Source: a virus. Taken from it: a stretch of DNA of 64,000 bases. The DNA lies in IMG/VR virus record IMGVR_UViG_3300023202_000336, positions 1-64,000 of that record; one strand, written 5' to 3'. The position numbers and the translations under genes were made by a program. The notes beneath the pieces were generated by a model. That model had not been told where the DNA came from and did not search any database. It worked only from the letters and a program-made list of their open reading frames with translations. Below, piece by piece: positions 5,449 through 63,523 of the stretch. How positions within the stretch are numbered: position 1 is the first letter of the stretch; each line of letters begins with the position of its first letter.

Positions 5449-6455
5449 TGGCGACCGGCGATCGCCCATGGTCGGACTTTCCGACGTCGACGACACTCGA
5501 CGACAATAGCGATTTTCTCGCGTTCGTTGACGTCTCGCAGCCGCTTCCTGAGGATCGTAATCGAACGATTACGCTCGATAACTTCGCTTCCGAGCTCTAC
5601 ACGAATGGGAGGACGCTCGGGACGCTGGCGGTTCTCAATGCGGCGATCACGGATGCGACGCTCGACGACGCCTCTGATCCAAGGCCTCCGACTGCACACG
5701 CGTCCGATCATGAGTCGGGCGGGACGGATACGATCGATCATGATAATCTCGTCGGATTTGTCGCAAACGAACACATCGATCATAGCTCAGTAGTTCTCAC
5801 CGCTGGCGAAGGAATCGCTGGTGGCGGTGATATTACCGCTTCGAGAACGTTTGATCTCGACATCGACGGTCTCGTTGAAGAGGCGGGTATTGATACCACC
5901 GCCGACTTCGTGGCCTTCTACGACGTCGACGCAGGTGTTCACCGGAAGATCCATCCTGATGATCTTGGTGTTGGTGGAGGTGGAGTCGGGTCAACCGTAT
6001 TCGATTTCGACGCTGATACCGGAACTACGGAAACGACAGTTGACGACGTCGTCGCGTTTTCTTTTCCGAAAGTTGGACCGGTGAGGTCGATAATCGGGTC
6101 TGAGCAGCTTCCGACCGGAATCGATCTTTCGGCGATCGATCCCGATATCACTATTCATTTTGTGATCACATCGACCGGAGGTGGAAGCGCAGACGTTCGT
6201 TTCGAGCTGGAAGCGACTTATATCGCTGACGGAGAACTGACGACGAAAGCAATTGATGAGACACTGACGCAAGATGTAACCGTCACTGATACGTTGAAGA
6301 CTCAGCATAGCGTGACCTTTACGCTCGACCGTACACTTATGTCGCTCAACGATGTCGTTCGTCTCAAGCTGAGCCGATTGAACTCTGATCCGAATGACAC
6401 CTATACCGGCGATGTTGCGGCATATGAGCGCGCTCGGTTCGAGTTCGAAGGATAA
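5448..6455 (+). CDS. Virion structural / tail-fibre-associated protein
   Basis: Acidic and Thr-rich; HASDHESGGTD and LTAGEGIAGGGDITASRT motifs seen in phage fibre proteins. Confidence 0.65.
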   Translation: MATGDRPWSDFPTSTTLDDNSDFLAFVDVSQPLPEDRNRTITLDNFASELYTNGRTLGTLAVLNAAITDATLDDASDPRPPTAHASDHESGGTDTIDHDNLVGFVANEHIDHSSVVLTAGEGIAGGGDITASRTFDLDIDGLVEEAGIDTTADFVAFYDVDAGVHRKIHPDDLGVGGGGVGSTVFDFDADTGTTETTVDDVVAFSFPKVGPVRSIIGSEQLPTGIDLSAIDPDITIHFVITSTGGGSADVRFELEATYIADGELTTKAIDETLTQDVTVTDTLKTQHSVTFTLDRTLMSLNDVVRLKLSRLNSDPNDTYTGDVAAYERARFEFEG

Positions 6456-6460
6456 CTACG

Positions 6461-8716
6461 ATGGTAAAACAGACAGAGATGGTCGAGTTCGAGGATCAGG
6501 GGAGCGGGATTGAAACCCGCACTCCGGTCATCGTAGGGCGACGCCCTCTCGAAATAGCTCATGAGCTTAAAAGAGTTATCTTCGTTGCGAAGACTGGCGA
6601 CGATGCAAATGACGGTCGGTGGTACGGGAATCCAAAGCTTACATTCGCGAGCGCAATGTCTGCAGCAGGGCCGCGTGCACACGGTGAGCTCAACGTTGAC
6701 GAGATACCGGCAAATAATCAGATTGTTCTCGATACTTCCGAGGGGGACGTCACCGCCGCTTTTGAAGCCGACGAAGAATTCAGAATTTCGAAGTCCGCAT
6801 CTGGAAACGATGGCGTCTATACCGTAGCTTCCTCGAACTGGGACGGTACGAATACAACGATTACCACTAATGAAACGACACTTACCACCGTCACGTCACC
6901 CGCCGCTGAGGCCCTCCCGACGCGGAAGATGGAGATCTTTTGCGAGGACGGAGGCGTCTACGTCGAGGACCTCGTGGGAGAACCCTACGTCGATATCGAA
7001 GCTCCGAGTGCGGCGTTGATCCCGGCTACGTCGGCGGCTTCTGGTGGTGCTCAGATCAAAGATAGTGAGACGTGGACGTTTGGGCAGATCACACGCATCC
7101 ACACCGGCGTGCGGATGATCACCAACGGCAAAGCGAAGGTCGTCGTCGACCAGGGCGGTACCGAGACCGGGGCAGTGAACGGACAGTTCTTGTTCTTGGT
7201 CGATTCGCGGCCGTCCGGTACCAGCCCGTTCGGCGTCGACACCGATGGTGGCACGCTCGACGTCGAGATGCGACGGTACGAGGGCGAGGCGAACATCGGC
7301 GGGGTCTACGCCAACCGCGAGGACGCGAACCTCTCGTTGGAGGTCGGGTCGATCCAAGTCGACGACGGAGGGACCGCGACGTGGTGGGATTTCTTCGCCG
7401 AGGGGGTCAGCACCACGAGCAAGAACGCGATCATGAACCTGGACGTCGGGTTCTATAATCGCGACATCGCGGGGCAGGGCTGCTTCCGCGCCTTCGGCTC
7501 ACAGCCCGGGTCGCTGGGTGAGGTTAACGTCGTCGGCGGGCGGATCGTCACCGCCGGGACCGCGTTCGAGACTAGCGGTGCTCAGGCTGACAAGCGGGTC
7601 CAGGCGTTGTGCAACGTCGTCGACGCGGTCACGTTGGTCATCGCGGACAACAACGGTGAGATCAACATCAGGGTGAATCGCATCACGGGGATCGCGTTTC
7701 GGCTGGGTACGCTCGCGACTGTCAGCATCATCACCAGGGACGAAATCGGTACCGAGACGATGAAGGTCACGCGGGATACCCCGTCCACGTCGGATACCAC
7801 CGGCGCGCTCACCGTGGAGGGCGGGATCGGGTGTCGCGGCAACGTGAACATGCAGGCCTCGGGTAAGGGAATTCACACGGCGAACCAGCTCATCGCGAAG
7901 AGTTCCAGTGCAGACGGTAGCGGGAAGGTGCGGTCTGAGCGGGAGAGTGGCGGCTTCGCGGGCTACATCGAGTCCAAGCACAGCAGCGGGCGTCACGGGT
8001 GGGACTTCGACGGGAAGGTGTCATGTGGTGAAGACGCCAACGGATTCGTGGTTGGCCTGAGCGATAACCTCTCGAATGCACGGTTCCGCATCGACAGCAG
8101 CGGCCGGTTGGTGTTTTGGGAGCCGGGCAGCGCACAGTTGCTCACCGTGAAGGCGATTGGTGACTTCGAGGTACTGCGCCGCAATGGGAGCGACGTCGAA
8201 GGCGTCAACCGCGAGGTCCTCCAGACACACCGTCTCCGCCCTTCAGACCTGGAGGACACCAACGACGCTGATTGGGGCGCGATGGTGACGACTCCGGCGG
8301 TCGGTGCGGATACCAACAACGCCTCGCTTCAAGTCATCTCCTTGGATGGCACGGTCGAGGAAGGGTTCGGGTTCCGCGCGTTCGTTCCGTCCGGTGCGAC
8401 GAAGCTCACGATACGGTTCAGGTCCCGCGCCGAGACCGCGCCCGGCGGTGCTGCCGCCGTCGTCCCGCGCCTCTATTTCCGTGGCATCCCCGACGACGCC
8501 ACGATCCCATCCTGGAGTAGCCCGACCCTGCTGACCGCCCTCGACTTCCCGACGAGCGAGCTGTGGCAGTACGACGAGCAGGAACTCGACCTCGCCACCC
8601 TTGGCATCACCGCGAACCAGGAGACGCAGTTCCAGGTTACCCGCGCCGTCGACGACGGCGGGGACACTTTGACCGGCGACTGGACGCTCCTGGTCACCGA
8701 GTTGCTATTTAAGTAA
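6461..8716 (+). CDS. Tail fibre / tailspike-like protein
   Basis: 751 aa, Gly/Thr-rich; FVAKTGDDANDG and STSDTTGALTVEGGIG fibre motifs; beta-helix-like central region. Confidence 0.7.
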   Translation: MVKQTEMVEFEDQGSGIETRTPVIVGRRPLEIAHELKRVIFVAKTGDDANDGRWYGNPKLTFASAMSAAGPRAHGELNVDEIPANNQIVLDTSEGDVTAAFEADEEFRISKSASGNDGVYTVASSNWDGTNTTITTNETTLTTVTSPAAEALPTRKMEIFCEDGGVYVEDLVGEPYVDIEAPSAALIPATSAASGGAQIKDSETWTFGQITRIHTGVRMITNGKAKVVVDQGGTETGAVNGQFLFLVDSRPSGTSPFGVDTDGGTLDVEMRRYEGEANIGGVYANREDANLSLEVGSIQVDDGGTATWWDFFAEGVSTTSKNAIMNLDVGFYNRDIAGQGCFRAFGSQPGSLGEVNVVGGRIVTAGTAFETSGAQADKRVQALCNVVDAVTLVIADNNGEINIRVNRITGIAFRLGTLATVSIITRDEIGTETMKVTRDTPSTSDTTGALTVEGGIGCRGNVNMQASGKGIHTANQLIAKSSSADGSGKVRSERESGGFAGYIESKHSSGRHGWDFDGKVSCGEDANGFVVGLSDNLSNARFRIDSSGRLVFWEPGSAQLLTVKAIGDFEVLRRNGSDVEGVNREVLQTHRLRPSDLEDTNDADWGAMVTTPAVGADTNNASLQVISLDGTVEEGFGFRAFVPSGATKLTIRFRSRAETAPGGAAAVVPRLYFRGIPDDATIPSWSSPTLLTALDFPTSELWQYDEQELDLATLGITANQETQFQVTRAVDDGGDTLTGDWTLLVTELLFK

Positions 8717-8728
8717 AAAGGATTCCAC

Positions 8729-9049
8729 ATGTCCCTCGAAACATCCGACACGATCAACGAAACCGGCAAGCGCCGTGATCGTAACTGGCGTCTTGAGATC
8801 GATACTCCGTTTGGTGGCGACTATTTTATACGGTCACATCGAGAAGAACTTTTCGTGGCGGATTCAGATAGTCGGACTATTTCTCGAGAAGAGCTTCCGT
8901 CGCTTATGCGAAGGTTTTCGGAGGTCAGTGAGGAAACGATAACCTTTGCGACCACACGTCACGGGACGGTGACGGCCACTATCGCTGAACTGGCGACCGC
9001 CATTATAGCGAAACTTGATGAGTGGCAGACGGCGGACAAGGCTGTCTGA
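8729..9049 (+). CDS. Small hypothetical protein, possible fibre chaperone or cap
   Basis: AGGA SD; directly follows a fibre gene. Confidence 0.65.
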   Translation: MSLETSDTINETGKRRDRNWRLEIDTPFGGDYFIRSHREELFVADSDSRTISREELPSLMRRFSEVSEETITFATTRHGTVTATIAELATAIIAKLDEWQTADKAV

Positions 9050-28491: not shown

Positions 28492-28956
28492 ATGCCGCTG
28501 AAGGGCGATTCCAAAAAGGTTATAGAATCAATGAAGGACACCTACGATTCTGAGCAGAAAGCTGAAGAAGTGTTCTACGCGACGGCGAATAAGGAGGATC
28601 GCGACCCTGAGACCTGGAAGAAAGAGGGCTCGACAGTGCTTAAGTCAGTTCTTCGCAAGAGAGCACAGCTCTCTCCTACTCAGTGGGGTATTTCTGGAGG
28701 CGTTGGTGGCGGTCTTGTAGGTGCTGGCATTGGTACTGCGATCGGAGCTCCTGCGAGTTTACTCTACTACATTATTCAGAAGGCCCGTGGCAGAGACCCC
28801 GAGTTTATTGATACGATTGCGAAGGGTACTGGGGTTGGAGCACTTACTGGTGGTGGTCTGGGCGCTGGTCTGGGTGCTTATAGGGGTGCTACGAGAGCGA
28901 ATGAGTTTAATCGACAGTATTCTCATGCATTGAGTAAGTCCCTTGGCCATGCGTAG
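28492..28956 (+). CDS. Gly-zipper protein, first of the K-x-A cohort
   Basis: AAAGGAG SD; KRA-Q; two GxxxG-rich hydrophobic segments. Confidence 0.8.
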   Translation: MPLKGDSKKVIESMKDTYDSEQKAEEVFYATANKEDRDPETWKKEGSTVLKSVLRKRAQLSPTQWGISGGVGGGLVGAGIGTAIGAPASLLYYIIQKARGRDPEFIDTIAKGTGVGALTGGGLGAGLGAYRGATRANEFNRQYSHALSKSLGHA

Positions 28957-29731
28957 AAGCGCTCCGCCGCGTCCTAAAGCGCAGCTTAAAAATCTCCTCA
29001 TTAAGAACGCAGCCTTTGCGAGGGGCCTGAGAAGAGCGGCAGTTGATATCGGCTCTCCGCTTCTGGGCGCAGGGACTCTTGCTGGTGGTGGTTACGCTAC
29101 TGGCGTTGAGAGTCCTCTGGATCTCGGTGCGCTCGCACTTCTCGGTGCGGCAGGCGGGACGAGAGGTGCTCGGCACACGTATATGGGCGGCACTCCTGGA
29201 GAGGCGCTTCGGCAGGCTCGAAAAGGTAGCTTCGATACCCCGCTCTGGAGAAAAGGGTTCGAGTACACCGATCCGAGTTCCGGCGTAACACGTAGGCTTA
29301 GCCGCGAGACTCCTGTCGAGGATATCGAAGCTGCTCTGAAGCCGCTTGCCTCTCGTCAGAGTGCGCGGGCGGTAACGCTTGGTGCGGGTGGGAAAGCCGG
29401 TATCGGCGCACTTTTCCCTGCGGGACGCGCGATTACTCGGACCTCTGAATTTATCGAAGAAGCTGGGGACGATATCGAAGAGATAACTCGGAAGTACCAG
29501 GAGGAGGGGGTGCCTCTTCGCCTCACGACCGGTGAGGGAGGGGAAAGTCTGGCCGAGGGAATGAAAAAGAGCCTGGAAAAAGGGCTGGAGAAAGGCTTCA
29601 CGGTGAAGCACGAGCTTCCGGGCATTCCCGAAGGCGTGAAACGATATGCGCCGTGGGTACTCGGAGGGGCAGGTGTACTTGGAGCGGCTGGGCTGTTGTA
29701 CTGGTTGCTACGAGATAAAGATAAAGACTGA
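28949..29731 (+). CDS. Gly-zipper, tail-anchored protein
   Basis: KNAA near the N-terminus; C-terminal hydrophobic helix plus RDKDKD. Confidence 0.75.
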   Translation: MRRSAPPRPKAQLKNLLIKNAAFARGLRRAAVDIGSPLLGAGTLAGGGYATGVESPLDLGALALLGAAGGTRGARHTYMGGTPGEALRQARKGSFDTPLWRKGFEYTDPSSGVTRRLSRETPVEDIEAALKPLASRQSARAVTLGAGGKAGIGALFPAGRAITRTSEFIEEAGDDIEEITRKYQEEGVPLRLTTGEGGESLAEGMKKSLEKGLEKGFTVKHELPGIPEGVKRYAPWVLGGAGVLGAAGLLYWLLRDKDKD

Positions 29732-29745
29732 TTACGGGGTGAGGC

Positions 29746-32700
29746 GTGGGCGAGTACGCTCCGGGTATACCTTCTCGTGGAGAATTCGGCGACCCCGCGC
29801 GCCTTCGACCCGGTCTTGCCGAGTGGGTCGTGCAGCAGCATCTCGCCGAGCGAGCCGGCCCGCACTACGATGTGCGGCTCGGAACGCCTGAGACGGGACT
29901 TTTATCGTGGGCGGCGAGGAAAGGACTTCCCGAGCCAGGGAAGCGTCACCTCGCTGTTCAGCAGCCGGTACATACGCTTCCGTATGCTGAGTTCGAAGGA
30001 CGTATTCCGAGCGGGTACGGGGCTGGCGAAGTCAAGAAGGCCGATCGTGGCGAGGTACTCATTCTCGACGCGAAGCCCGATAAGGTGAGCTTCGCAGTTG
30101 CTCATAAGAAGTTTCCGGAATATTTCACGCTGGTGAAACCGAAGGGGTTCGGTGGCGATCGTGACTGGCTTCTGATCAATACGACACCGACGAAGATCGT
30201 CGAGAACAAGAAGATCAGATACACGAAAGTGCCGGCTGAAGAAGTCGAGAAGATGTTCGATGAGCGCTATCTCGCTTCTGAGAAGATCGATGGCGCTTCT
30301 GCACTCGTCCGTTTCTTAGATGACGATATTGATATCATTTCCTACCGTGCATCGAAATCCGGTCGTCCGATCGTTCATACGCACCGCCTCTCTGGTACTC
30401 CGCTGAAGTCGGATGTCCCGAAAGAGTGGAAGAAACGGATACTGAAGGGAGAACTCTACGGTGTCCGGAAATCGACAGGTGAAGCGATCCCACCGCAGGA
30501 ATTGGGAGGGATACTGAATGCGTCGCTTGCTGAAGCGATTCGTAAGATGGGTGAGCAGGATGTGGACCTCAGAGTCGCCCTCTTCGACGTCCTCGGAGAA
30601 GAAGACAAGCCGTACCCCGTTCGGAAAGAACTCCTTGAGGAGGCGCTCAAGATACTTCCGGAGGACAAATTCCACCTCCCTCGAATGGCTGAAAGACCAG
30701 AGGAGATGCGTAAGCTCTGGGAGGAAATCGAAGCAGGCAAAAGCCCCTACACACGAGAGGGACTCGTCTTTCACCCGAGAGAAGGAGGAAAGCCGCTGAA
30801 GGTGAAGCGTACACCGGAGGCGAAGGTTGTCATTCGCGACATCTTTCCCGGGGCGGGACGTCTCGAAGGTACCGGTGCTGGCGGTTTCGAGTACTCGATC
30901 GAAGAGGATGGCCCGGCTGTCGGACGCGTTGGAACCGGTTTCACCGAAGAGATGCGCCGTAAGATGTGGAAGAACCCTGAAGAGTTTGTCGGGCGTGTCG
31001 CTCGGATACGAGCTCAGGATCAGTTCCCGCGTACCGGCGCGTTCCGAGCGCCGGCCTTTATAGCTCTGCATGAGGAGTACGAGAAATTGCCCGAAGAAGA
31101 GGGAGAGGAGAACAAGAAGCAGTTTCCGAAGGTAGCCGGTTTCTGGGCAGACGTCGCTATGGAGGCGCTCAAAGGCGGCCTCAGCGGCGCGTCACTCGGC
31201 GGGTATCTCGGGCACCAGGGGGCCTACGGTTGGCGTGGGTTCGAAGGGGACCCGAGCGCAACTGGTGGAGCTGTGCGGATGGGTCTCGCTGGCGGCGCGG
31301 CAGGCGCGGTTGCTGGTGGTATTTTCAATCGCATCCGCGAGTATTTGCGGGACACTGAGCTTGAGCGAAAGATGCGTGAGTGGGAAGAGCGGATGGAAGG
31401 GAAAAAGAAGAAGAACGAGAAAACTGCCGCGAAAGCTGACGTTGGTCTTTATCGAAACGACGTGAAGTATCCGACAGCGACCGGTGGACGGCCGGTACGT
31501 GCTTCGAATGCGGTGTTGATGGGGCAAATCGGGAAGCCTGAGCGTTATGCTGGTGGCCTTCCTGTTTATAACCAACAGGACGGCGAGCGTACGAAGATTG
31601 CCGAAATCATCGAGAAGGTAAAAGGAAAGATCGCTCAGAATCTTTACCCCGACGCCGGTGAAGACGCGCCTCCGGGCGTACAGCAGGAGATCGATCGTTT
31701 CAGGTCGATGCCCCCAGAGGATCGTGATCGCCCACTTCTTTACTATCTGCTCGGGGAGGGGACGCCTGATTACAAGATGTCGAAGGAGGACGCTGAGTAT
31801 CAGGAAGAGCCGAAAGGCGATCAGAAGTGTGGCAATTGTGAATTCGCGTACAAAAAGGTAGTCCGCAATCAGTTCATCTGTTCGAAGGTCGAGGGCGATA
31901 TTAAGCCGGAGGCATGGTGTAAATTCTGGGCTCCGAACGAGGAGAAGCAGAAGACCGCTGGCGAAGCGCAAAAAGCGCCTTCTGGTGGTAAACAGATTGA
32001 TTGGATCGTTTATGATTACGACGGTAACCTGCTTTGCATCGCATTAGATAATGAGGGCGAGGGTTGGAAGCTGACCGAGTGGGTTAATTTTGAGGGCCTC
32101 TCGCAGAATAAGTTACGAGAGATGCTTGACATGGGGTTTATGACCATGTTGGAGGCAGCGAAAGGGCGCGACAGTTACACCTACATCATAGGTAATCACG
32201 CCTTCGATTGGGCTGACGAGAACAGTTCCTACTTCAAGGAACTGTTAGGCGATAAGTTCGAAGGTAAGAACTCTGTTTCGATTGATATCGATTTGGACGA
32301 GTTCAGATCTCAAGTGGAGAAGCTGGTTGCGCCGAAGGATGTTACTTTCAAGAAGGAGGCCGGTGAGGAGCGCGAACCAGAAGTCGATAATCATTCGTCA
32401 GCGCCACAGCATAAGATGCGACCGAGAGCGGAACTTATCCTTTTCACGAAAGGCGGCGTCTATGCGATTGATAAGGGTGATTACCTCCTCTTTCCTGGTG
32501 GTGGTGTCGACGACGGTGAAGAGCCTCGCGATGCGGCTATTCGGGAGACGATCGAGGAATCGAATCGTCACCCGATCAATGTCGACCAGTCCGGTATCGT
32601 TGAAGCCGTCTGGCCTGAAGACAGTGGAAATGACTTTTGGGACGATTCGAAGTTCGATGGAGAACGGACGTACTTCTTTCTCGGCGTCGATTCCGGAGAA

Positions 32701-34221
32701 GCTGGAGTTACGCATGACGACCAGGAGAAGTTCGAAGTCAAGTCGTTCGATACGATCATCGATCGATTGGGTGAGCTTATCGAAGACGAGAGCCAGCAGT
32801 GGGCCCGGCGGAACAACGAGATTCGACGTGAACTCGTAACGCGAGCGAAAGAGAATGCGCAGCGAGACGAGGGGATGAAGCCGATGAAACGTGCGAGCAG
32901 TTTCGAGGACTTCGTGGTCAAACGGGCTCAGCAGTATCTCGATAAGGGGATGTTGCCGCCTCCGTGGCTCTACGATGAAGTGAAAGAGGGTCAGGAGTAC
33001 GATATCACGCAGCAGGAAGAAGTGGTCGGTGACGCACAGGCCCCGGCGCAGCCGGCGCCACCTCCGATGCAGCAGATTCAGCAAGCGACTCCCGAAGCGA
33101 GATATCAGATTTCAGGAGCGCCAAAAGATTTCGACGAAGCGTTTGCTGATCAACTGCGTCAGCAGGTCACGCCGCAAGCACAGCCGGGGGCGCAGGTCCA
33201 GCCACGAGCCCAGACAGCTCCTGGAGGCGGTGTCGGTGCGCCTTACAAGGCTGCACAGGCGATCACGCATTCAGGAGCGTTTCGTCAGAGTACCCCCGAG
33301 CTTGTTACTTCCGGTGGTTCCGGTGATACGCTTCAGGACGAGCGGGAAGAGTATGGTGTTCCGGAATCGATGATGACGGAGCCCGGAGACGTCGGTAAGT
33401 CGACGAACGCACCTGCGATCGGGACGAATATCGTTCCGCCGCTCCAGAATGATCTCGAGAAAGAAGCGTCATTGAAGGAACGGATACGCCGGAAAGTAGC
33501 TGAAGCTGTTCCGTCGCCCCTTCGCTCGCTTACTGTTTTGATGCAGATAAAGGCTGCCGCTATGGCGCTCGAGGAAGAGTTGCGCGTCGGAACGAAGGAG
33601 GAGCTGGAGCATACGTCCGATCTGGATGAGGCAGAAGAGATCGCGCGTGAGCATCTCGAGGAAGACAAGAACTACTACGATAAGCTCGAAGACGCTGGTC
33701 TTTTGGACGCGACTCGTAACAAGGAGAAGAAAACCGCTGACGTTGTCCAGCTGATGCCGAGGCGTGAACAGATCCTTTTCACCCCTGAGGGAAAGCTGGT
33801 AGCACGTCCGACTGGTCGACGTCGGTTCGAGCTTCCGCAGGAAGGGCCGGGCCGCCCTGTTCCTTACGAGGAGCGTATCCCGTTCATCCCTCCGACTGGT
33901 ATCGAAGAACCCGGCTTCCATGGATATGATGTCGGCCTCCATATTGGCGAGGTTCCAGAAGTTCCCGAAGGGTTCGAAACAGTCGACCCTGAAGAGGCGC
34001 TGAAGCAGTTCTACGGAAGCATGGGTATCGCTGAGAATCGGCCGTATCGGCAGCTCGATCGTGCACGTGCACGCGCGATCCTTCGCTACCTGAAGCGCAA
34101 GAAGAAGGAGCGCGAAGAGGAGCGGCAGGAGCCGGTCACGGACGAGCCGATGAATCGTCCAGAATTTTCTACAACCGAGGGGACATTTAGTGAGGCGCCA
34201 GGGGCTGTTCGGGACTATTGA
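29746..34221 (+). CDS. Polyprotein: LigD-type 3'-phosphoesterase, ATP-dependent DNA ligase, Gly-zipper, HiPIP-like, unknown domain, Nudix, DUF5661-like
   Basis: QQH-x7-HYDVRL...H.LPY (PE); EKIDG, KGELYG, LFDVL, EGLVF, LKVK, VGTGF (ligase/OB); C-x2-C...C...WC (HiPIP); GGGVDDGE-x7-RETIEES (Nudix); EHT.D...A.EIA.EHL.ED.NYY.KL (DUF5661). Confidence 0.9.
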   Translation: MGEYAPGIPSRGEFGDPARLRPGLAEWVVQQHLAERAGPHYDVRLGTPETGLLSWAARKGLPEPGKRHLAVQQPVHTLPYAEFEGRIPSGYGAGEVKKADRGEVLILDAKPDKVSFAVAHKKFPEYFTLVKPKGFGGDRDWLLINTTPTKIVENKKIRYTKVPAEEVEKMFDERYLASEKIDGASALVRFLDDDIDIISYRASKSGRPIVHTHRLSGTPLKSDVPKEWKKRILKGELYGVRKSTGEAIPPQELGGILNASLAEAIRKMGEQDVDLRVALFDVLGEEDKPYPVRKELLEEALKILPEDKFHLPRMAERPEEMRKLWEEIEAGKSPYTREGLVFHPREGGKPLKVKRTPEAKVVIRDIFPGAGRLEGTGAGGFEYSIEEDGPAVGRVGTGFTEEMRRKMWKNPEEFVGRVARIRAQDQFPRTGAFRAPAFIALHEEYEKLPEEEGEENKKQFPKVAGFWADVAMEALKGGLSGASLGGYLGHQGAYGWRGFEGDPSATGGAVRMGLAGGAAGAVAGGIFNRIREYLRDTELERKMREWEERMEGKKKKNEKTAAKADVGLYRNDVKYPTATGGRPVRASNAVLMGQIGKPERYAGGLPVYNQQDGERTKIAEIIEKVKGKIAQNLYPDAGEDAPPGVQQEIDRFRSMPPEDRDRPLLYYLLGEGTPDYKMSKEDAEYQEEPKGDQKCGNCEFAYKKVVRNQFICSKVEGDIKPEAWCKFWAPNEEKQKTAGEAQKAPSGGKQIDWIVYDYDGNLLCIALDNEGEGWKLTEWVNFEGLSQNKLREMLDMGFMTMLEAAKGRDSYTYIIGNHAFDWADENSSYFKELLGDKFEGKNSVSIDIDLDEFRSQVEKLVAPKDVTFKKEAGEEREPEVDNHSSAPQHKMRPRAELILFTKGGVYAIDKGDYLLFPGGGVDDGEEPRDAAIRETIEESNRHPINVDQSGIVEAVWPEDSGNDFWDDSKFDGERTYFFLGVDSGEAGVTHDDQEKFEVKSFDTIIDRLGELIEDESQQWARRNNEIRRELVTRAKENAQRDEGMKPMKRASSFEDFVVKRAQQYLDKGMLPPPWLYDEVKEGQEYDITQQEEVVGDAQAPAQPAPPPMQQIQQATPEARYQISGAPKDFDEAFADQLRQQVTPQAQPGAQVQPRAQTAPGGGVGAPYKAAQAITHSGAFRQSTPELVTSGGSGDTLQDEREEYGVPESMMTEPGDVGKSTNAPAIGTNIVPPLQNDLEKEASLKERIRRKVAEAVPSPLRSLTVLMQIKAAAMALEEELRVGTKEELEHTSDLDEAEEIAREHLEEDKNYYDKLEDAGLLDATRNKEKKTADVVQLMPRREQILFTPEGKLVARPTGRRRFELPQEGPGRPVPYEERIPFIPPTGIEEPGFHGYDVGLHIGEVPEVPEGFETVDPEEALKQFYGSMGIAENRPYRQLDRARARAILRYLKRKKKEREEERQEPVTDEPMNRPEFSTTEGTFSEAPGAVRDY

Positions 34222-35832: not shown

Positions 35833-38703
35833 ATGCCTTCCAATTTCGCTTTCAGCCCGACTCATAGCTCGCTCATCCCGACGATGAGTAACCAGCCCTT
35901 CGGTGCCGAGCAGCTGACGCCGAATTTCCGAAACTTCCCGACACCGTGGCTCGATTATTCGACGGTCGCGGTGCCCGATAACCACGAACTGGTGATGTGG
36001 TGGGCCCAGTACTTGTGGATCATGGATGGGAACTTCAGAACGGCGATGGAGCGCGTCGCGGCACATTTTGTCACGACCATCGACTTCCCTGACCTTGAGC
36101 CGGGGGAGGAGTCTGTTTGGAAGGACCTTTTCCTTCAGTTCCTCGATTACCGCGCTGAGCTTATGGCTGCGGCGATGGACTACCTGTGTTTCCGAGGCGA
36201 TACGCGGGTGGTGGCTCGCGACGGGATCTATGAGATCTGCGAGCTTGAGGGGAAGGAAGTAGACGTCTTGTCAGAAGGCGGTGTCTATAGGCCGGCCAAG
36301 TTCAAGCGGTTCGGGATCCAGGAGCTTATGGAGGTCGAGTTTAGTGACGGGCGCACCGTGCTCGCTACTCCCGAGCATCAGTGGATCGTTGAAAGTAACG
36401 GTGGATCTATTCGTGTCCCGACTACCCAGCTGGCCGGTCGGCGTATAGAGCGTACCGTAGCTGAGCGTCCCGAGCGCGGTAACGGTTATTCCGAAGGAGT
36501 CCGTCACGGGTTCGTTTTTGGAGATGGATCTACTTATAACAAGCATCGAGAGAATCAGTTCTCGGTAGCGAACTTCTACGGTGATAAGACGGAACTGCTC
36601 CCCTATTTCGAAGGGTTCGGAGGGGAGCCGCGTAAATACGAGTACAGTTACGGAGCTGCCGTTATTAAGATACACGGGCTTCCGGCTCATTATAAACAGC
36701 TCCCGGATCCCGAAGTGAGTGCTGAGTATTGGTACGGATTCGTAAGTGGATTTCTTGCGGCAGACGGGTCTGTCGATACGCATGGTTGTGTTATTCTCAC
36801 TCAGGAGGCGAAAGAGACGCTCGCATCGATAGTCGAACAGCTTCCGCGTATCGGAATGGTCGCAGGACCGATCCGTGGTTACACTCAGGAAAGGACTTTG
36901 CCTGAGTACGACGGAGAGCAGAGGTCTGGTGAGACCACGATGCATTACGTGACGCTTCTGAAGCGTTTCATGCAGCCGGAAGATTTGCTTCTTTCAGGGC
37001 ATCGAGCTAAGTTCGAGGACAAATGGAAAGCGACCAATTACGGTAAATATATTCACGTGAAGAGCGTGAAAGAGACCGGCATCGTCGAAGATGTATACTG
37101 CTGTGTCGAGCACGAGACACACTCTTTCGTTATCGAAAACGGGATACTTACCGGCAATTGCTATGGGAATCTGGTTACGACGCTTTACCTTCCGTTCCGC
37201 CGTTACATGCGGTGCAGGCGGTGCGCACTCGAGCAGCCTATCGAGCGACTCAGCTATAATCTCCAGTTTTCCGCATCACCGCCGCATCTGATCTGGCGCC
37301 GCCGTGCCGATTGTCCGCGTTGCGGCGATAGTGCTCCTTACGAAGTAGTCGATCGTCGTGATAGCGATCTCGGGAAGGTCCGCATTAATCGTTACGATCC
37401 TTCTGATATTGAGATCGCCTGGAACAGGCATAGTCATAAGAAGGATATTTACTGGAGGATTCCCGAGGAGGACCGTCGAGATATTCTCGGAAAAGCCCGT
37501 ATCCATATCGATACGACTCCGCTCGAGGTTCTCGAGGCGGTTGCTGTCAACGGGAGACTTCGTTTCGAAGATAACATGGTCTTCCATCAGGCCGAACCTA
37601 ATATCTCCGGGATCAAGACGAGAGGCTGGGGTATTCCCCGGTCTATCTCGAACTTCAGGACCGCATGGCTTCAGCAATTGATCAACAAGCTCGATCAGGC
37701 AGTTGCGATCGATTACACGCTCGGTATCCGGCTTATCAGCCCGGCTGAGACGTCCGGATCTACTGACCCGCTTCAGACGCAAGGGCTTGAAAACTTTGCC
37801 TCGAAGATGAGTTCGATCGTTCAGGAGCACCGGGCGAACCCGGCGTCGTACCATACGTCGCCGTACCCGGTAAACTATCAGTTCCTCGGTGGCGAAGGCA
37901 GCGACGTCATGCCGGCTGATAAGATCAAGTTCCGTCAGCAGGAGTACCTGAACCAGCTCGGCGTGCCGCTCGAGTATCATCAGATGAATCTGCAGTCGCA
38001 GGCAGCGCCGATGTCGCTTCGGATGTTTGAAGCGTTCTGGCAGGGTATTCCGAGCTTCTACAATCGCCTCCTCGAGTGGGTCACCACGACGCTCTCGCGC
38101 GTGTACAACCTCGAGGATACACGCGTTCAGATGCAGAAGACCACGATCGCTGATGATCTCGAGCGTAAGGCGGTACTGTTGCAGCTGATGTCCGCGAACC
38201 AGCTCAGCCCGGAGACGGCGCTGCGTCCGTACGGCATCGATGCGCACGAGGAAGTGAAGAAGGTCTTCTCGCACGAGGACTACGTGGCGAGATTGCAGCG
38301 TGAGGCGGAAGAGCGTCAGCTGAATCGTGAAGAGATGGGTGTCATGAAGGGCATGTCGGCGCACCCGACTCCGTCGCAGATGGCGATGCAGCAGCAGGGG
38401 GCTGCTGCCGGGGGGATGCAGCCGCCTCCTCCTGGCACCCCGATGGGCGGCGTTCCGGCCGGCGGCCTCCCGCAGATGGGCCCGACCCCGCAGAGTCTCG
38501 AGGCTATGGGCGAGCAGGCCGAAATGATCGCTCAGCAGCTGGTGGGTCTTGATGAGTATACTCGGAAGCAGGAGCTCAAGGCGCTGCGGGAGTCGAATAA
38601 GGATCTGCATGCGCTTGTGACGAAGAGCATGGAGGAGATTCGGAGTGCTGCCCGCTCGGAGGGTGGACACATGCTCCTTTCACAAGGGGCAGGGGGCGTG
38701 TAA
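35833..38703 (+). CDS. Portal-like protein with intein
   Basis: Spliced junction DYL-CYGN matches the portal YGN motif; helical body; Gln/Pro/Gly-rich tail; located in the head block. Confidence 0.65.
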   Translation: MPSNFAFSPTHSSLIPTMSNQPFGAEQLTPNFRNFPTPWLDYSTVAVPDNHELVMWWAQYLWIMDGNFRTAMERVAAHFVTTIDFPDLEPGEESVWKDLFLQFLDYRAELMAAAMDYLCFRGDTRVVARDGIYEICELEGKEVDVLSEGGVYRPAKFKRFGIQELMEVEFSDGRTVLATPEHQWIVESNGGSIRVPTTQLAGRRIERTVAERPERGNGYSEGVRHGFVFGDGSTYNKHRENQFSVANFYGDKTELLPYFEGFGGEPRKYEYSYGAAVIKIHGLPAHYKQLPDPEVSAEYWYGFVSGFLAADGSVDTHGCVILTQEAKETLASIVEQLPRIGMVAGPIRGYTQERTLPEYDGEQRSGETTMHYVTLLKRFMQPEDLLLSGHRAKFEDKWKATNYGKYIHVKSVKETGIVEDVYCCVEHETHSFVIENGILTGNCYGNLVTTLYLPFRRYMRCRRCALEQPIERLSYNLQFSASPPHLIWRRRADCPRCGDSAPYEVVDRRDSDLGKVRINRYDPSDIEIAWNRHSHKKDIYWRIPEEDRRDILGKARIHIDTTPLEVLEAVAVNGRLRFEDNMVFHQAEPNISGIKTRGWGIPRSISNFRTAWLQQLINKLDQAVAIDYTLGIRLISPAETSGSTDPLQTQGLENFASKMSSIVQEHRANPASYHTSPYPVNYQFLGGEGSDVMPADKIKFRQQEYLNQLGVPLEYHQMNLQSQAAPMSLRMFEAFWQGIPSFYNRLLEWVTTTLSRVYNLEDTRVQMQKTTIADDLERKAVLLQLMSANQLSPETALRPYGIDAHEEVKKVFSHEDYVARLQREAEERQLNREEMGVMKGMSAHPTPSQMAMQQQGAAAGGMQPPPPGTPMGGVPAGGLPQMGPTPQSLEAMGEQAEMIAQQLVGLDEYTRKQELKALRESNKDLHALVTKSMEEIRSAARSEGGHMLLSQGAGGV
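36187..37158 (+). mobile_element. Intein with LAGLIDADG homing endonuclease (324 aa)
   Basis: C1 of CFRGDT; TPEH block B; GFVFGDG and GFLAADG motifs; ends FVIENGILTGN with +1 Cys. Confidence 0.92.
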
Positions 38704-44170: not shown

Positions 44171-45010
44171 ATGCAGAAAGCGGCTGCCCACGAGTGGGCA
44201 ACAGACCCGGGGTACATCCCTGTATTTGCTCTCGGCGGTGCGGCGCTCGGAGGCGGGGCTCGTTTACTGAAGAACCTCTTCGACCTTGGAAGACGTGGCC
44301 CGACGAAGTCTCCAGTGGAGATAGCGCGCCCTCTTGCGGCGCTCTCTGAGGTTCCGGTCGAGGTCTCTAAAGAGGAGGCCGAGGAGTTGCGTAAGCGCGG
44401 CGTCAAGGTTCGGAGGATGCTTTCGAAAGAAGGCGCTCATAAGAAGGAAGGTATTTCACGACTGCTGGGGTCCGCTGGACTTCTCGGTCTTGGAACCCTT
44501 TCGACCGTCGGCGGGTGGCATCTCGCCGATACGCTTATCGATGCTGCTCGGAAGCGGGCGGCGAAGAAAGATGTCGAAGACGTGAAGAAGCGGATACGCC
44601 GTATCCTCGAGGAATCGCCGTCTAATCGTGATGACGAGAAGCTCTTCGGTTACATGAAGGCGGCCGAAGACAAGTACTTCAAGAAAGAAGCGATCCTGAA
44701 GGACATTCCGGTGATTCTTGGCGGGAGCCTCGGTATTAGCGGCGTTCTTGCGGGCCTGGCCGCTTACAATCGTTTGCAGCGGTCTGCTGAGGCGTCTCCT
44801 AAGTTGACCGCATTGAAGTCTATGCTTGCTCGGAGACTTCCGCAGCGTCCGAGTATGACGATGGTGCCTGTTCTGCGAGAAGGCGACGAAGAAGAAAAGG
44901 AGGACGAGGAGCGTATCCAGCCGCGCTTCGTTCCTGTTGAGCGGGTGAGGACGCCCGGGAGCCCAGCAGTACAGGCGGCGAGAAACCGTAGCACCTCCAA
45001 TTGGATTTAG
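44171..45010 (+). CDS. Gly-zipper K-x-A-cohort protein
   Basis: Starts MQKAAA; KEGA, MKAA, KKEA; three hydrophobic Gly-rich segments. Confidence 0.78.
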   Translation: MQKAAAHEWATDPGYIPVFALGGAALGGGARLLKNLFDLGRRGPTKSPVEIARPLAALSEVPVEVSKEEAEELRKRGVKVRRMLSKEGAHKKEGISRLLGSAGLLGLGTLSTVGGWHLADTLIDAARKRAAKKDVEDVKKRIRRILEESPSNRDDEKLFGYMKAAEDKYFKKEAILKDIPVILGGSLGISGVLAGLAAYNRLQRSAEASPKLTALKSMLARRLPQRPSMTMVPVLREGDEEEKEDEERIQPRFVPVERVRTPGSPAVQAARNRSTSNWI

Positions 45011-60635: not shown

Positions 60636-61619
60636 ATGCCTTTCGCAGAGGTCGCTGCCGACGTTCTGACTGATCCTCAGAAGCAGATGAAAGTTGCCGC
60701 GGAGGTGGGTGACGAGGAGGCGCAGTCTGCTGAGGAGCGTGCGAAGAGTCGTCGTCTCAAGGCGATTCTTTATACGTTGGCGGGGATCGGTACCGTAGGG
60801 CTTGGTTCTTACTTTCTTCTCAAACACCCCGATAAGGTCGCTGAAGGGGTGAGAAAGGTTTTTGGTGGAGAGGAAGAGCCAGAGCAGACCGCTGCAGAAC
60901 GTTTGAAAGGAGCGGTTACCTCTCCGAGTATAGCGGGCGGTCTTGCTTACCTCGGTGCCGGAACTCGAACTGGCGCTTCGTATCTTCCGAGGACGCTTCA
61001 GAAGTTTCCGTTCTTTACGGGTGACCGTGCGCTTTCGCTCGAAAATCTTCGAAAGCATATTGCCGCGGTCTCAACACCTGAAGGTCAGACAGCAGCCGCG
61101 CAGGCGAAGACCCCTGATCAGAGGCTCGGGGCTCTTATGACGGATCTTCCAGAGCTGGAGCAGCGCAGAAAGTTGCATAAAGAGCTGGGAAGGGCTCGAG
61201 GCAGAGAGGGGTCGATATTGAATCTCATCGCTGCTGATCCGAAACTTAAGCGCATAGATGAGATCTTGCAACTTCCTCGTGCGCAACAGCAGGCGCTGAT
61301 AAAGAAATTGAAGGCCCCGGCAAGGACCATTCCCGGTCTTTCCGGCCTCCAAGACGTACGGTTCATGAAGAACCTTGAGCGCGGCTTAGGAGAACTCGCA
61401 GCACAGGAAGGAAGGAAAACTCCTGGAGCAGGAGAGCGCGCGAGAGCTGTTAGGCGCTTTCTTGGAGCGGATCCTGAGACGCTTCACGGTGCGCTGAGGT
61501 CGTACCGGAAGGCACGTGCTCCGAGAAGTTTCTGGGGAGGCGTCGGGCGAGCTGCTGTTGTTCCGACGGCAACTATGGTCCCCGGTGCGCTTGAGACTTA
61601 TGAGGCATGGACTGACTAA
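60636..61619 (+). CDS. Gly-zipper K-x-A-cohort protein
   Basis: GGAGGA SD; KVAA; ILYTLAGIGTVGLGSYFLL hydrophobic helix. Confidence 0.78.
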   Translation: MPFAEVAADVLTDPQKQMKVAAEVGDEEAQSAEERAKSRRLKAILYTLAGIGTVGLGSYFLLKHPDKVAEGVRKVFGGEEEPEQTAAERLKGAVTSPSIAGGLAYLGAGTRTGASYLPRTLQKFPFFTGDRALSLENLRKHIAAVSTPEGQTAAAQAKTPDQRLGALMTDLPELEQRRKLHKELGRARGREGSILNLIAADPKLKRIDEILQLPRAQQQALIKKLKAPARTIPGLSGLQDVRFMKNLERGLGELAAQEGRKTPGAGERARAVRRFLGADPETLHGALRSYRKARAPRSFWGGVGRAAVVPTATMVPGALETYEAWTD

Positions 61620-63523
61620 TGATTACGAAACTGATCCTTCCGCAGTCGTTTAGTTTCGATGGTCCAGCCGCGTCGTTGGTGCCACTTCATCGCGTCGGAG
61701 GGGCTGATTCGCAATGGTTGCGGAAGCATGCGAGTCATGGAGTCTTTCATGACCTCCTTCGAGACCTGAAGCCGATTCCTGGTAAGTCCGTTATTCATGT
61801 ACTCGCGGTCGGTGACGAGGAGCTGTGGGGCCCGAACCGAAACGGCGACGGGTTCAGTCGTGAAGATAATGTGACCGCGCATCGGACGTTCAAAGACATC
61901 GGTCACGTCTTCAGGCACCACCAGAATGATGATCCGTTCAAGGCCGTCGGTGATATCATCGCTACGGCGCATAACGAGAATATGTCTCGGATCGAGTTAC
62001 TTCTCGGGCTCGATAATACGAAGTGTCGCCGTGAGATCGAAAAGGTCGATAACGACGAAGATCTCCCTGTGAGCATGGGTTGCTTTACGGCCGGTCACTT
62101 TCTGACGCTCGAAGACGGGTCGGTTATTAGGTTAGAGGACGCAGTCGAAGGTCAGCAGGTATTGACGCATTTAGGTAATCGGCTACCTATTACACACGTT
62201 TTTAATCAGGACCCGTATACCGGCACGTTGTATACTCTGAAGGCCCGAACGGTTGAGGACGTTGAGGCTACGGCCGAGCACCCGTTTTTTGTAGTGCGTC
62301 AGGAGCATATTGTTCACACGGGCCGTAAAACACGCCGCGTGGATCCGTCTAAACTTAATCAACTTGATGTTACGTTAGACGCTGACTGGGTTGCTGCGAA
62401 GGATCTTCGGGTAGGCGACTACTTGGTTACTCCCGTGAACCTTGAAGAAGAGCTTCCGGATTACATTCCCCGTACCGACACCCCTGTTCTCGCAAGGCAC
62501 ACGACCAAGGCCTGTCGAGACTTGGAGACTACTCACCGCGGCGGAAGTAGGTTGCGTGTAGATGATTTCATTCTTACACCTATCCGTGATATCTTGTCGC
62601 GAGACGTTGTAGACGAGCCCGTTTACAATATTGAGGTACAGAGTGATAACTCGTACGTGATTAATGGCATCGCGGTTCATAATTCTCTTCAGGATTTCGA
62701 TGTTTGTTCTCATTGTGGTCATAAGGCGCCAACGGCTTCGGATCATTGCGAACATATCAAGAAGATGCTCGGACAGGTCTTGGAGGACGGTACCAAGATC
62801 TACATGAAGAACCCGAAGCCGAAGTACTTCGATCTCAGCCTCGTTTTCAAGCCGGCTGATCGGATCGCGTACACGCTTCGGAAGGTTGCTGCCGCTGGTG
62901 GCGAAGTCATCGGGGGCCACGAACTGGCTGACATGGTTGGTCTCGTCGATTGGACGCATCCGAAGATGGCTGCGAAGCGGACGCTGGCGGCGATGTATAA
63001 AGAGATCCCGATGACGATCCGTCAGGTGACACGTCCGAAGGACGTCCATCCGAATGTCGCTGCGGAGCTCAAAAAGCAGGCGAATCTCCACGGAATCGAC
63101 CAGTTGCTCGGATTCCTGCATTCGAACGGGTGGCTCCTGAGCCCACGTGACTTCGCCGAGGTGATCGGGCACCCCGAGCCTGAGAAGTGCGAAATGGCGG
63201 TTGCGAAGCACGATGGTATGGACGATTTCCTCGACGATCACAGCGAAGTCAAATCGTTGGAAGTCCCTGTCATACAAGACCCTATGACTTTGAGCGGGCG
63301 AGCTCTCGAGGAGCTTGAGGGCGCCTGTTCGATGCATCCTGACAAGGTCCAGAAGCGGGTGATTTCGATTACCGTGACCGGACCTTCAGAGAAGACTGCT
63401 CAGATCGAGGATACGGCTGAAGCGAAGGGGTTGGCAGCGCTGTACAACCACTATAAAGTAGCATTCGCTATGCAGTTCCAGTCTCGGAACGATATCCTTC
63501 GCAACGTCGCAGCTACGTTCTGA
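61619..63523 (+). CDS. Prohead (maturation) protease-like protein with mini-intein and Zn finger
   Basis: NRNGDGF, FRHHQN...GDI (candidate catalytic His) and VSMG (candidate catalytic Ser) resemble HK97/T4-clan proteases; CSHC...HCEH; followed by an acidic scaffold-like gene. Confidence 0.7.
   Translation: MITKLILPQSFSFDGPAASLVPLHRVGGADSQWLRKHASHGVFHDLLRDLKPIPGKSVIHVLAVGDEELWGPNRNGDGFSREDNVTAHRTFKDIGHVFRHHQNDDPFKAVGDIIATAHNENMSRIELLLGLDNTKCRREIEKVDNDEDLPVSMGCFTAGHFLTLEDGSVIRLEDAVEGQQVLTHLGNRLPITHVFNQDPYTGTLYTLKARTVEDVEATAEHPFFVVRQEHIVHTGRKTRRVDPSKLNQLDVTLDADWVAAKDLRVGDYLVTPVNLEEELPDYIPRTDTPVLARHTTKACRDLETTHRGGSRLRVDDFILTPIRDILSRDVVDEPVYNIEVQSDNSYVINGIAVHNSLQDFDVCSHCGHKAPTASDHCEHIKKMLGQVLEDGTKIYMKNPKPKYFDLSLVFKPADRIAYTLRKVAAAGGEVIGGHELADMVGLVDWTHPKMAAKRTLAAMYKEIPMTIRQVTRPKDVHPNVAAELKKQANLHGIDQLLGFLHSNGWLLSPRDFAEVIGHPEPEKCEMAVAKHDGMDDFLDDHSEVKSLEVPVIQDPMTLSGRALEELEGACSMHPDKVQKRVISITVTGPSEKTAQIEDTAEAKGLAALYNHYKVAFAMQFQSRNDILRNVAATF
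62081..62683 (+). mobile_element. Mini-intein (201 aa, no endonuclease)
   Basis: C1 of CFTAGH; TAEHPF block B; ends VYNIEV...YVINGIAVHN with +1 Ser. Confidence 0.93.

Follow-up and report, generated by a model that had tools for sequence, protein, structure and literature searches.

A K-x-A motif at the module borders of a phage polyvalent protein and in an assemblin-fold prohead protease points to probable processing of capsid cargo

We analysed the first 64 kb (hereafter the window) of IMGVR_UViG_3300023202_000336, a complete virus of 180,134 bp with direct terminal repeats, and focused on a single open reading frame (ORF) at 29746-34221 on the plus strand, which has a GTG start and encodes a protein of 1491 amino acids (aa). 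This protein, labelled P0001 (P0003, P0004, P0009, P0025 and P0305 are labels of proteins from related phages), is a chain of unrelated modules whose borders coincide with the short motif K-x-A, and this motif is conserved in a separately encoded protease of assemblin-type fold. From these observed features we infer cutting, packaging, ejection and targets, and consider it probable that P0001 is a phage polyvalent protein that is loaded into proheads and cut after K-x-A into enzymes carried by the virion.

A first-pass annotation, made from the sequence, had known of no description of this combination of domains. That was wrong, as the class is that of the phage polyvalent proteins, which carry 2-15 unrelated catalytic or effector domains per polypeptide in variable architectures, with InPase, 2H phosphoesterase, SNF2, MPTase and MuF as hallmarks (Iyer et al. 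2017, PMC5512222). P0001 is phage-encoded, its gene lies amid late/virion genes, and it combines a 3'-phosphoesterase (PE), a ligase, a Nudix domain and at least three more modules. As regards such hallmarks, P0001 itself offers no more than a sub-threshold DUF5661 match and a Nudix domain; its relatives carry InPase (4e-55), 2H-SAK (1.8e-11) and SNF2, and also GNAT and SET. The likeness to the published class extends to unrelated enzyme domains in one phage chain, extreme shuffling, the late/virion context, and packaging and delivery with the DNA, which are predicted there as here (PMC5512222). The difference lies in the processing, which was proposed for polyvalent proteins to occur via embedded peptidases (a zincin-like MPTase or a C-terminal assemblin-like domain) (PMC5512222), whereas P0001 has no embedded peptidase and its joints carry a short tag that matches a separately encoded protease. 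The same paper contains no cassette of a LigD-type PE plus ligase ('LigD' gave 0 matches) and no K-x-A code (PMC5512222).

The domains that the first-pass annotation had placed in one ORF were borne out. Pfam detected LigD_N (aa 30-131, 1e-15), DNA_ligase_A_M (aa 164-330, 1.2e-7) and NUDIX (aa 909-999, 1.9e-9) in P0001, with DUF5661 (aa 1278-1316, 6.4e-5) and HIPIP (aa 675-729, 0.0095) below the cut-off, and found no peptidase domain. PHROGs agreed for the ligase (PHROG 114, ATP-dependent DNA ligase, 4e-20) and for the Nudix module. An AlphaFold model of residues 462-1491, based on an 80-row alignment in which the stand-alone homologs of module 4 were misaligned, was confident for the Nudix module (aa 881-1071), the C-terminal domain (aa 1331-1466), the Cys module (aa 611-731) and the DUF5661-like helices. 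We divide P0001 into seven modules, three of which are recognisable as enzymes or cofactor-type (PE-ligase, the four-Cys module and Nudix), with the following layout, in which pLDDT is the predicted local distance difference test score of the model:

29746..31080 (aa 1-445), plus strand: module 1, LigD-type PE plus ATP-dependent ligase cassette (Pfam, PHROG 114)
31129..31140, plus strand: joint 1, K462-V-A-G, 17 aa after the cassette end, low pLDDT
31141..31419 (aa 466-558), plus strand: module 2, Gly/Ala-rich hydrophobic segment resembling a glycine zipper, then a charged helix, as read from the sequence
31420..31431, plus strand: joint 2, K559-T-A-A, at a helix end and the start of a low-confidence stretch
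31432..31635 (aa 563-630), plus strand: segment with a motif that is N-terminal in relatives and a helix with KIAE617 and KIAQ628 (alignment A1; breakpoint cluster at aa 634)
31636..31938 (aa 631-731), plus strand: module 3, four-Cys HiPIP-like, C-x2-C-x13-C-x12-C, pLDDT 60-93
31951..31962, plus strand: joint 3, K736-T-A-G, breakpoint cluster at aa 738, pLDDT<50
31978..32349 (aa 745-868), plus strand: module 4, domain of unknown function with stand-alone homologs, poorly modelled
32353..32364, plus strand: joint 4, K870-E-A-G, breakpoint at aa 871, pLDDT<50
32365..32886 (aa 874-1047), plus strand: module 5, Nudix hydrolase, Pfam NUDIX 1.9e-9, pLDDT 95-98
32887..32898, plus strand: joint 5, K1048-R-A-S, breakpoint at aa 1050, in a predicted helix; KRAQ follows at 32920-32931
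32986..33447 (aa 1081-1234), plus strand: Gln/Pro-rich disordered linker with KAAQ1168, pLDDT ~30
33451..33708 (aa 1236-1321), plus strand: module 6, helical DUF5661-like region, pLDDT 60-95, with KEAS, KVAE and KAAA within helices
33730..33741, plus strand: joint 6, K1329-T-A-D, pLDDT<50 (alignment A1)
33742..34221 (aa 1333-1466), plus strand: module 7, conserved C-terminal domain, pLDDT 94-98, then a strongly basic tail and the stop codon

Module 1 carries H-Y-D-V-R in its PE part and K-I-D-G as ligase motif I, and its homology to other proteins stops at aa 443-446. Module 2 is mostly modelled at pLDDT<50 apart from a helix at aa 537-561, and relatives have similar Gly-rich stretches after the cassette. 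Many relatives naturally begin with the stretch that follows KTAA559 (YRND...SN..LMG...PERYAGG). Module 3, read by sequence only, scored 16.6 bits against the HIPIP model, under its 22-bit cut-off; it also occurs as stand-alone proteins of 100-145 aa, and a stretch 48% identical to it, in the huge phage LR756508, was the sole tblastn match to P0001. Module 4 likewise has stand-alone homologs (125-190 aa) with 17 invariant columns, and its profile had no match among PDB sequences. Nudix hydrolases share the box G-x5-E-x7-R-E-U-x-E-E-x-G-U on a Nudix fold; module 5 has an intact box, GGGVDDGEEPRDAAIRETIEES, in which N replaces the final G, and its box residues are invariant in alignment A6. In a Foldseek search with the whole 1030-residue model, in which Nudix matches filled the result list, this module matched Ap4A hydrolase, RppH and MutT at ~1e-5. 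DUF5661, sub-threshold in module 6, is above the Pfam cut-off in the relative P0009.

Module 7 forms the C-terminal end of the relatives listed while the upstream modules vary, and because it is always last under varied cargo in these proteins, we read it as a likely incorporation or anchor part. Compared as profiles, this domain (33742-34143) resembles the Nudix module weakly (hhalign 47%, E 1.9e-4, 117 columns) and has no Nudix box; it may be a degenerate Nudix-fold duplicate. No match to module 7 was found among PDB sequences, and the ESM Atlas gave no usable one.

All ten K-x-A motifs quoted by the first-pass annotation were found in place, and P0001 contains four more (KKAD at 30034, inside the PE domain; KIAE at 31594; KIAQ at 31627; KAAQ at 33247). 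The extended form K-x-A-[AGSQ], a class picked after the data had been seen, occurs 10 times against 2.4 expected (p=2e-4). The statement that the motifs fall between, and not within, recognisable domains holds, as only 1 of the 14 sites lies inside a Pfam-matched stretch. The same is true of the wider family: across nine members, 4 of 73 K-x-A sites fall inside Pfam domains (0.12 vs 0.93 per 100 aa, p=8.5e-8), an 8-fold depletion. In the AlphaFold model, linkers of pLDDT<50 hold KVAG462, KTAG736, KEAG870, KAAQ1168 and KTAD1329, and KTAA559 sits at a helix end; the accessibility of joint 5 is uncertain, as the helix predicted there may limit it. Homology breakpoints in P0001 were located at aa 445, 535, 634, 738, 814, 871, 1050 and 1327, and the K-x-A centres at 629, 737, 871, 1049 and 1330 lie within 0-5 aa of such breakpoints. 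The proposal that the listed sites are joints was upheld for about six of them (462, 559, 736, 870, 1048 and 1329), which are backed by homolog borders, and not for the remaining helical sites, which have no such support.

If P0001 is a concatenation of swappable modules, as had been suggested, its modules should behave as independent units in homologs, and in silico they do. A search of 5.8 billion proteins for relatives of the PE-ligase placed this cassette at the N-terminus, in the middle or at the C-terminus of ~146 other proteins, together with SNF2, GNAT, SET, InPase, 2H-SAK, histidine phosphatase (His_Phos), glucosaminidase, inteins or RNA polymerase (RNAP) Rpb1; many stand-alone copies (443-475 aa) were also found. 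Stand-alone ligases end at HEG/HEDY, whereas fused copies continue as Y-P-x(1-3)-K-x-A-(A/S/Q). At the other border, cassettes at a natural N-terminus begin with M-x(3-6)-FAPGLPD, K-x-(A/S) lies 3-8 residues upstream of this point in internal ones, and N-terminal extensions of 10-25 aa almost always end in K-x-A-(A/G/S), for example MRLLDFLKTAA before DFAPG and MNKYILSILKRAG before EVNEP. The remaining modules also proved to be independent units in an exhaustive HMMER search with aa 462-1491. In most homologs listed, the Nudix module is preceded by K-x-A-G and then E-(E/x)-(R/N)-E-P; Nudix proteins that otherwise stand alone have N-terminal leaders of 13-21 aa with K-x-A-G, and the module ends in (R/K)-P-x-K-(Q/L/Y)-A in homologs. 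Ahead of the C-terminal domain, two of the homologs listed have K-x-G-D and all the others K-x-A-D, and at KTAD1329 the K, A and D columns are invariant among variable flanks (alignment A1).

We quantified these borders in two ways. In an unbiased tally of gapped dipeptides in fifteen-residue windows, K-x-A ranked first at both cassette borders, being present in 49 of 72 windows after the HEDY anchor of fused homologs and in 26 of 34 at the other border, which is 15-16-fold above the rest of the sequences; inside the cassette the value is 1.7%. Among 574 clustered homology breakpoints in 204 related proteins, the median distance to K-x-A was 8 aa vs 44 for random positions, with 43% of breakpoints at <=5 aa (9% random) and 56% at <=10 aa (16% random). 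Control motifs (A-x-K, R-x-A, E-x-A, A-x-A, K-x-E, K-x-L, K-x-G, K-x-S, Q-x-A, K-x-P, P-x-P and E-x-E) were near random. Homologs thus do swap modules at K-x-A borders, which the earlier reading had named as a check on itself. A recombination scar or DNA-level repeat at the joints was considered and dismissed: the sites use different synonymous codons, and their flanks show no relation.

Two further features of these relatives were observed. Seven PE-ligases (P0052, P0054, P0060, P0099, P0111, P0101 and P0117) have only a C-terminal tail of 19-30 aa past the K-x-A tag, and these tails share the peptide L-(I/V)-x-(I/V)-M-K-x-R-(R/A), which may be a removable C-terminal targeting peptide. In P0025 the cassette is fused to RNA polymerase Rpb1 domain 2, which places part of a virion-type RNAP on the same polypeptide as cargo enzymes.

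The candidate processing enzyme is encoded near the end of the window, followed by genes for a scaffold-like protein and a putative major capsid protein (MCP):

61619..63523, plus strand: prohead protease with the fold of assemblin and T4 gp21, candidate for the processing enzyme (ortholog model, PHROG 18299)
62081-62683 (aa 155-355), plus strand: mini-intein of 201 aa within the protease gene (Pfam 7e-11)
63561..65042 of the genome, plus strand: scaffold-like acidic protein of 493 aa (ORF listing), which starts in the window and runs beyond its end at 64000
66273-67211 of the genome, downstream of the scaffold gene: MCP-like gene, 312 aa, with 28% identity to the major capsid protein of Salmonella phage Arash

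The predicted catalytic residues of the protease are Ser152 (VSMG) and His100/101, and the mini-intein starts two residues past the predicted nucleophile. Most orthologs are without an intein; others contain larger inteins of LAGLIDADG type, for a total of ~800 aa. Intein-less orthologs of ~430 aa are encoded on contigs of 160-215 kb, including those of P0003 and P0004, and one of them, P0305, was modelled from 46 sequences (pLDDT 80.8) and used to assess the fold. This model matched T4 gp21 (5jbl; Z 10.7, root-mean-square deviation 2.9 Å over 129 aa) and the varicella-zoster virus protease (1vzv; Z 10.6), with Z of 7-10 to the proteases of pseudorabies virus, herpes simplex virus (HSV), human cytomegalovirus (HCMV), Kaposi's sarcoma-associated herpesvirus (KSHV) and Epstein-Barr virus (EBV), and 6.6 for the best unrelated fold. 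The protease also matched PHROG 18299, 'head maturation protease' (2.7e-11). The Pfam Peptidase_S78 and S77 models gave no match on the genome, so the protease is recognised only via its fold and PHROG, and a PDB sequence search with the intein-containing protein returned nothing usable. The family comprises at least 228 IMG/VR contigs.

The motif recurs in this enzyme itself. The protease of the window has three K-x-A sites after the fold: K422-V-A-A (62882), K449-M-A-A (62963) and K592-T-A-Q (63392). In the ortholog alignment (46 sequences), H100 and S151 are invariant, and in the disordered linker just past the fold K220 is present in 46/46 and A222 in 45/46 sequences, with V221 conserved; K247-x-A249 is conserved too, as is K390-x-A392, ~40 aa from the C-terminus. 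Both the post-fold K-V-A-(S/A) and the near-C-terminal K-x-A persist in anchored IMG/VR loci down to ~32% identity. The post-fold site is also found in cultured phages, as K218-V-A-N in Arash gp222, K248-V-A-S and K274-I-A-S in Bacillus phage G gp19, and K219-T-A-G in gp97 of the Bxz1-type mycobacteriophage Spud. The last of these proteins (4911-9020), annotated as 'tape measure', begins with an assemblin-fold protease domain, lies two genes before the major head protein and contains 18 K-x-A where 8.3 are expected; rather than a tape measure, it is probably a head protein with a protease at its front.

The scaffold-like protein carries KRAG and KTAG near its N-terminus and KVAS and KVAA near its C-terminus, and KRAG16, KVAS472 and KVAA487 are kept in orthologs. 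A 667-aa minus-strand ORF at 63531-65534 was rejected as spurious and of low complexity, the real gene being the plus-strand one for the scaffold-like protein. One short motif common to protease, scaffold and cargo would be expected in a prohead-protease system, and K-x-A is present in the protease, the scaffold and the cargo joints. The Arash major capsid protein, to which the MCP-like gene is related, has been verified by mass spectrometry (MS; PMC10585845); the MCP-like gene follows the protease at ~4 kb in 75/80 loci, and the order protease, scaffold, MCP is syntenic.

The gene for P0001 lies between tail-fibre-like genes and the block with RNAP pieces, protease, scaffold and MCP, and its position in this block is retained in the relative that encodes P0003. 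A polyprotein with the C-terminal domain is present once per genome in the six closest genomes (520-1396 aa), and the ligase cassette is patchy (5/25 genomes). In the head block (28.4-64 kb), K-x-A-[AGSQ] occurs 36 times against 16 expected, compared with ~1.4-fold enrichment in the rest of the genome, and in head-block orthologs conservation of the K-x-A residues exceeds that of other K (19/44 vs 30/130) and other A (20/44 vs 81/291). Sequence searches of the region were largely silent: PHROG and Pfam scans of ~40 neighbouring proteins left almost all without a match, a megablast of 25-45 kb of the window against INPHARED found none, and no relative emerged when IMG/VR was scanned for peptide patterns of P0001.

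How might these parts work together? By likeness to the known sites L/I-x-E, A-x-E and V-x-A followed by S, the scissile bond would lie after the Ala. The P0001 precursor would enter the prohead, with its conserved terminal segments, above all the C-terminal domain, as the likely incorporation parts. The protease at 61619-63523, active once its intein is spliced out, would cut after the Ala of exposed K-x-A sites, and the same tag would serve self-release of the protease and degradation of the scaffold. Such cuts would free the PE-ligase, a glycine-rich membrane-type segment, the Cys module, the module of unknown function, the Nudix hydrolase and the C-terminal domain. On infection, the freed pieces would exit alongside the DNA and have early functions, with possible roles in end repair or ligation and in hydrolysis of nucleotides or RNA caps against host defences. 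In indirect support of packaging, virion MS of the distant relative Arash detected RNAP subunits and the K-x-A-rich proteins that flank its protease (PMC10585845).

Several observations weigh against such processing. Our literature searches yielded no proteomic, N-terminal or biochemical datum for the K-x-A motif or for this phage, and the proteome papers on Arash (PMC10585845) and phage G (PMC12484599) report no cleavage sites. All MCPs of the family start at one and the same residue and have neither a propeptide nor a conserved K-x-A at the N-terminus, so that they offer no MCP-maturation control, and PHROG, Pfam and PDB sequence searches did not confirm a portal identity for the protein at 35833-38703. 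The junction counts are partly non-independent, as tags are inherited with cassettes. Seven of the 14 sites in P0001 (KIAE, KIAQ, KRAS, KRAQ, KEAS, KVAE and KAAA) lie in helices of the model and may be uncut. In the 160,861-bp clade member G009, a polyvalent frame of 2223 aa with a PE domain contains 7 K-x-A vs 15 expected (P=0.02) and its ligase/PE border is tag-less, though the G009 protease keeps K-V-A; in G024, a frame of 2772 aa is not enriched overall (17 vs 15.8). The K-x-A punctuation could therefore be non-universal, or the G009 frame could have been selected to escape cutting.

These points bear on four other explanations. P0001 might work at full length as an uncut Swiss-army-knife chain, as the N4 virion RNAP and ArdC/TraC1 are reported to do, with K-x-A as a linker, docking or capsid-targeting signature that is not scissile. 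Some polyvalent proteins are delivered unprocessed (PMC5512222), the sequence logo is weak beyond K and A, and the helical sites and the giant frames of G009 and G024 would fit. A docking tag would, however, be unexpected in almost all junctions between unrelated modules, where short N-terminal leaders end and in the disordered post-domain linker of the protease, and the depletion inside domains and in the G009 frame suggests that a live cleavage signal is being avoided; we consider an uncut chain unlikely. Somewhat less credible still is a cut at K-x-A by another enzyme, a host or phage protease, perhaps ahead of assembly in the cytoplasm or after entry into the next host. Post-injection processing was considered by Iyer et al. 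(PMC5512222), and we link the protease to its substrate by inference only. Against another enzyme, the tag is kept in the assemblin-fold protease, at positions where enzymes of this type cleave themselves, across very distant members, K-x-A is enriched in the head block well above the rest of the genome, and P0001 lacks a peptidase domain of its own.

The Lys of K-x-A might instead be a site of modification or conjugation, for example of a ubiquitin-like type. The Lys is strict and never Arg, which would fit Lys-directed modification too and counts against cleavage to that extent; R-x-A shows no border enrichment (7.5%, random 12.8%), and K220 is invariant in the protease family. Tags at the ends of short leaders, at module joints and next to natural termini are nevertheless what a cut predicts and conjugation does not, and the proteases of Arash, phage G and Spud have the tag as well; we regard modification as very improbable. 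Chance or composition, with K-x-A merely marking charged, Ala-rich linkers, seems to us the least probable of the four. The overall count in P0001 (14 vs 9.2 expected) is indeed not significant (shuffle p=0.06), a further point that tells against processing, and A-x-A and E-x-A are mildly enriched at breakpoints. Composition does not account, however, for the preference of breakpoints for K-x-A while A-x-K, E-x-A, A-x-A, K-x-E, K-x-S, K-x-G and R-x-A stay near random, for its top rank among all gapped dipeptides at both cassette borders, or for the invariance of K, A and D among variable flanks. On balance we favour the reading of P0001 as prohead cargo cut after K-x-A. It is quite possible, though we stop short of calling it probable, that assemblin-fold prohead proteases of a large and so far unrecognised family read K-x-A followed by A, S, G or D as their recognition code, one not described before and used as a plug-and-play cargo grammar: an enzyme flanked by K-x-A could be spliced into head cargo, loaded via the conserved terminal domains and freed in the capsid.

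The proposed system shares parts with several known ones. The K-x-A-ended leaders resemble the capsid-targeting leaders of T4, which are cut at L/I-x-E, and, as in the T4 internal proteins and Alt, the leaders are short and end in a three-residue P3-x-P1 tag (PMC9026906). The T4 protease gp21 also shares the fold of our candidate (Z 10.7), and the T4 head carries and ejects diverse cargo enzymes (PMC9026906). Unlike in T4, the tag is K-x-A and not L/I-x-E, and many modules are chained with tags between them in place of one leader per protein. The phiKZ and SPN3US proteases gp175 and gp245 cut after A/S/G-x-E (PMC10052503, PMC5694885). Both are likewise giant phages that have many head proteins and keep genes for RNAP subunits within the head block, and their protease self-cleaves its C-terminal propeptide, with multiple cuts within propeptides (PMC10052503, PMC5694885). 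Their motif differs, the sequence relation is remote (Pfam Peptidase_S77 was not detected in our genome), and their known substrates lose propeptides and are not enzyme chains.

In the herpes assemblin precursor (pUL26 type), protease, R site, scaffold and M site follow one another, and the cut is at (V/L/I)-x-A before S (Welch et al. 1991, cited in PMC5512222). Our candidate has the same P1 Ala followed by Ser/Ala, a related fold (Z 7-10.6) and a layout like that of the R and M sites, with protease fold, linker site, helical domain and a second site ~40 aa from the C-terminus. It differs in having Lys at P3 where the herpes sites are aliphatic, in belonging to a phage and in sites that also punctuate cargo enzymes. 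Module 1 resembles bacterial LigD in joining a 3'-phosphoesterase to an ATP-dependent ligase and gave weak full-length matches to annotated LigD. Unlike LigD, P0001 has no polymerase/primase match at E up to 1, whereas the bacterial matches carry PF01896 and PF21686; LigDs are without K-x-A enrichment, and the PE-ligase here is a mobile cassette in phage cargo.

Further genes of the region were noted in passing. The 956-aa protein at 35833-38703 has a sub-threshold intein match (Pfam 1.7e-6), and its ortholog beside P0003 is 617 aa long. Two head-block neighbours, at 28943-29731 and 44171-45010, each open with a short leader that terminates in K-x-A-A (LLIKNAA, MQKAAA) and runs into a hydrophobic, Gly-rich stretch; the cargo modules show this arrangement of leader and tag as well. 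Beyond the window, genome positions 69537-70289 encode a 250-aa protein of basic, histone-H1-like appearance that opens with about ten tandem K-K-T-A-K repeats, which inflate local K-x-A counts. A protein with TPR and a GT41 (OGT/SPINDLY-type) glycosyltransferase domain (Pfam Glyco_transf_41, 2.6e-44) is encoded in the structural region at genome positions 70333-72246, and two genes of helix-turn-helix/endonuclease VII type lie between it and the MCP gene.

What is new here, against the background of the known polyvalent class, is a separately encoded assemblin-fold protease that appears to read K-x-A between cargo modules, together with the PE-ligase cassette; our literature searches found neither a K-x-A protease code nor this cassette described. 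If the proposal is true, it would define a new specificity class of capsid-maturation proteases, with Lys at P3 and Ala at P1, that links the T4-type (x-E) and herpes-type (x-A before S) enzymes. Across a large group of uncultured phages of 150-230 kb, the tag would show which proteins ride in the capsid and mark both ends of each mature enzyme. It would explain how cassettes of counter-defence enzymes (ligase/phosphoesterase, Nudix, SNF2, GNAT, InPase and others) can be swapped without loss of function, as a DNA-phage counterpart to the polyprotein processing of RNA viruses. The tag could also act as a loading-and-release signal for foreign proteins in phage heads, like the capsid-targeting sequence of T4.

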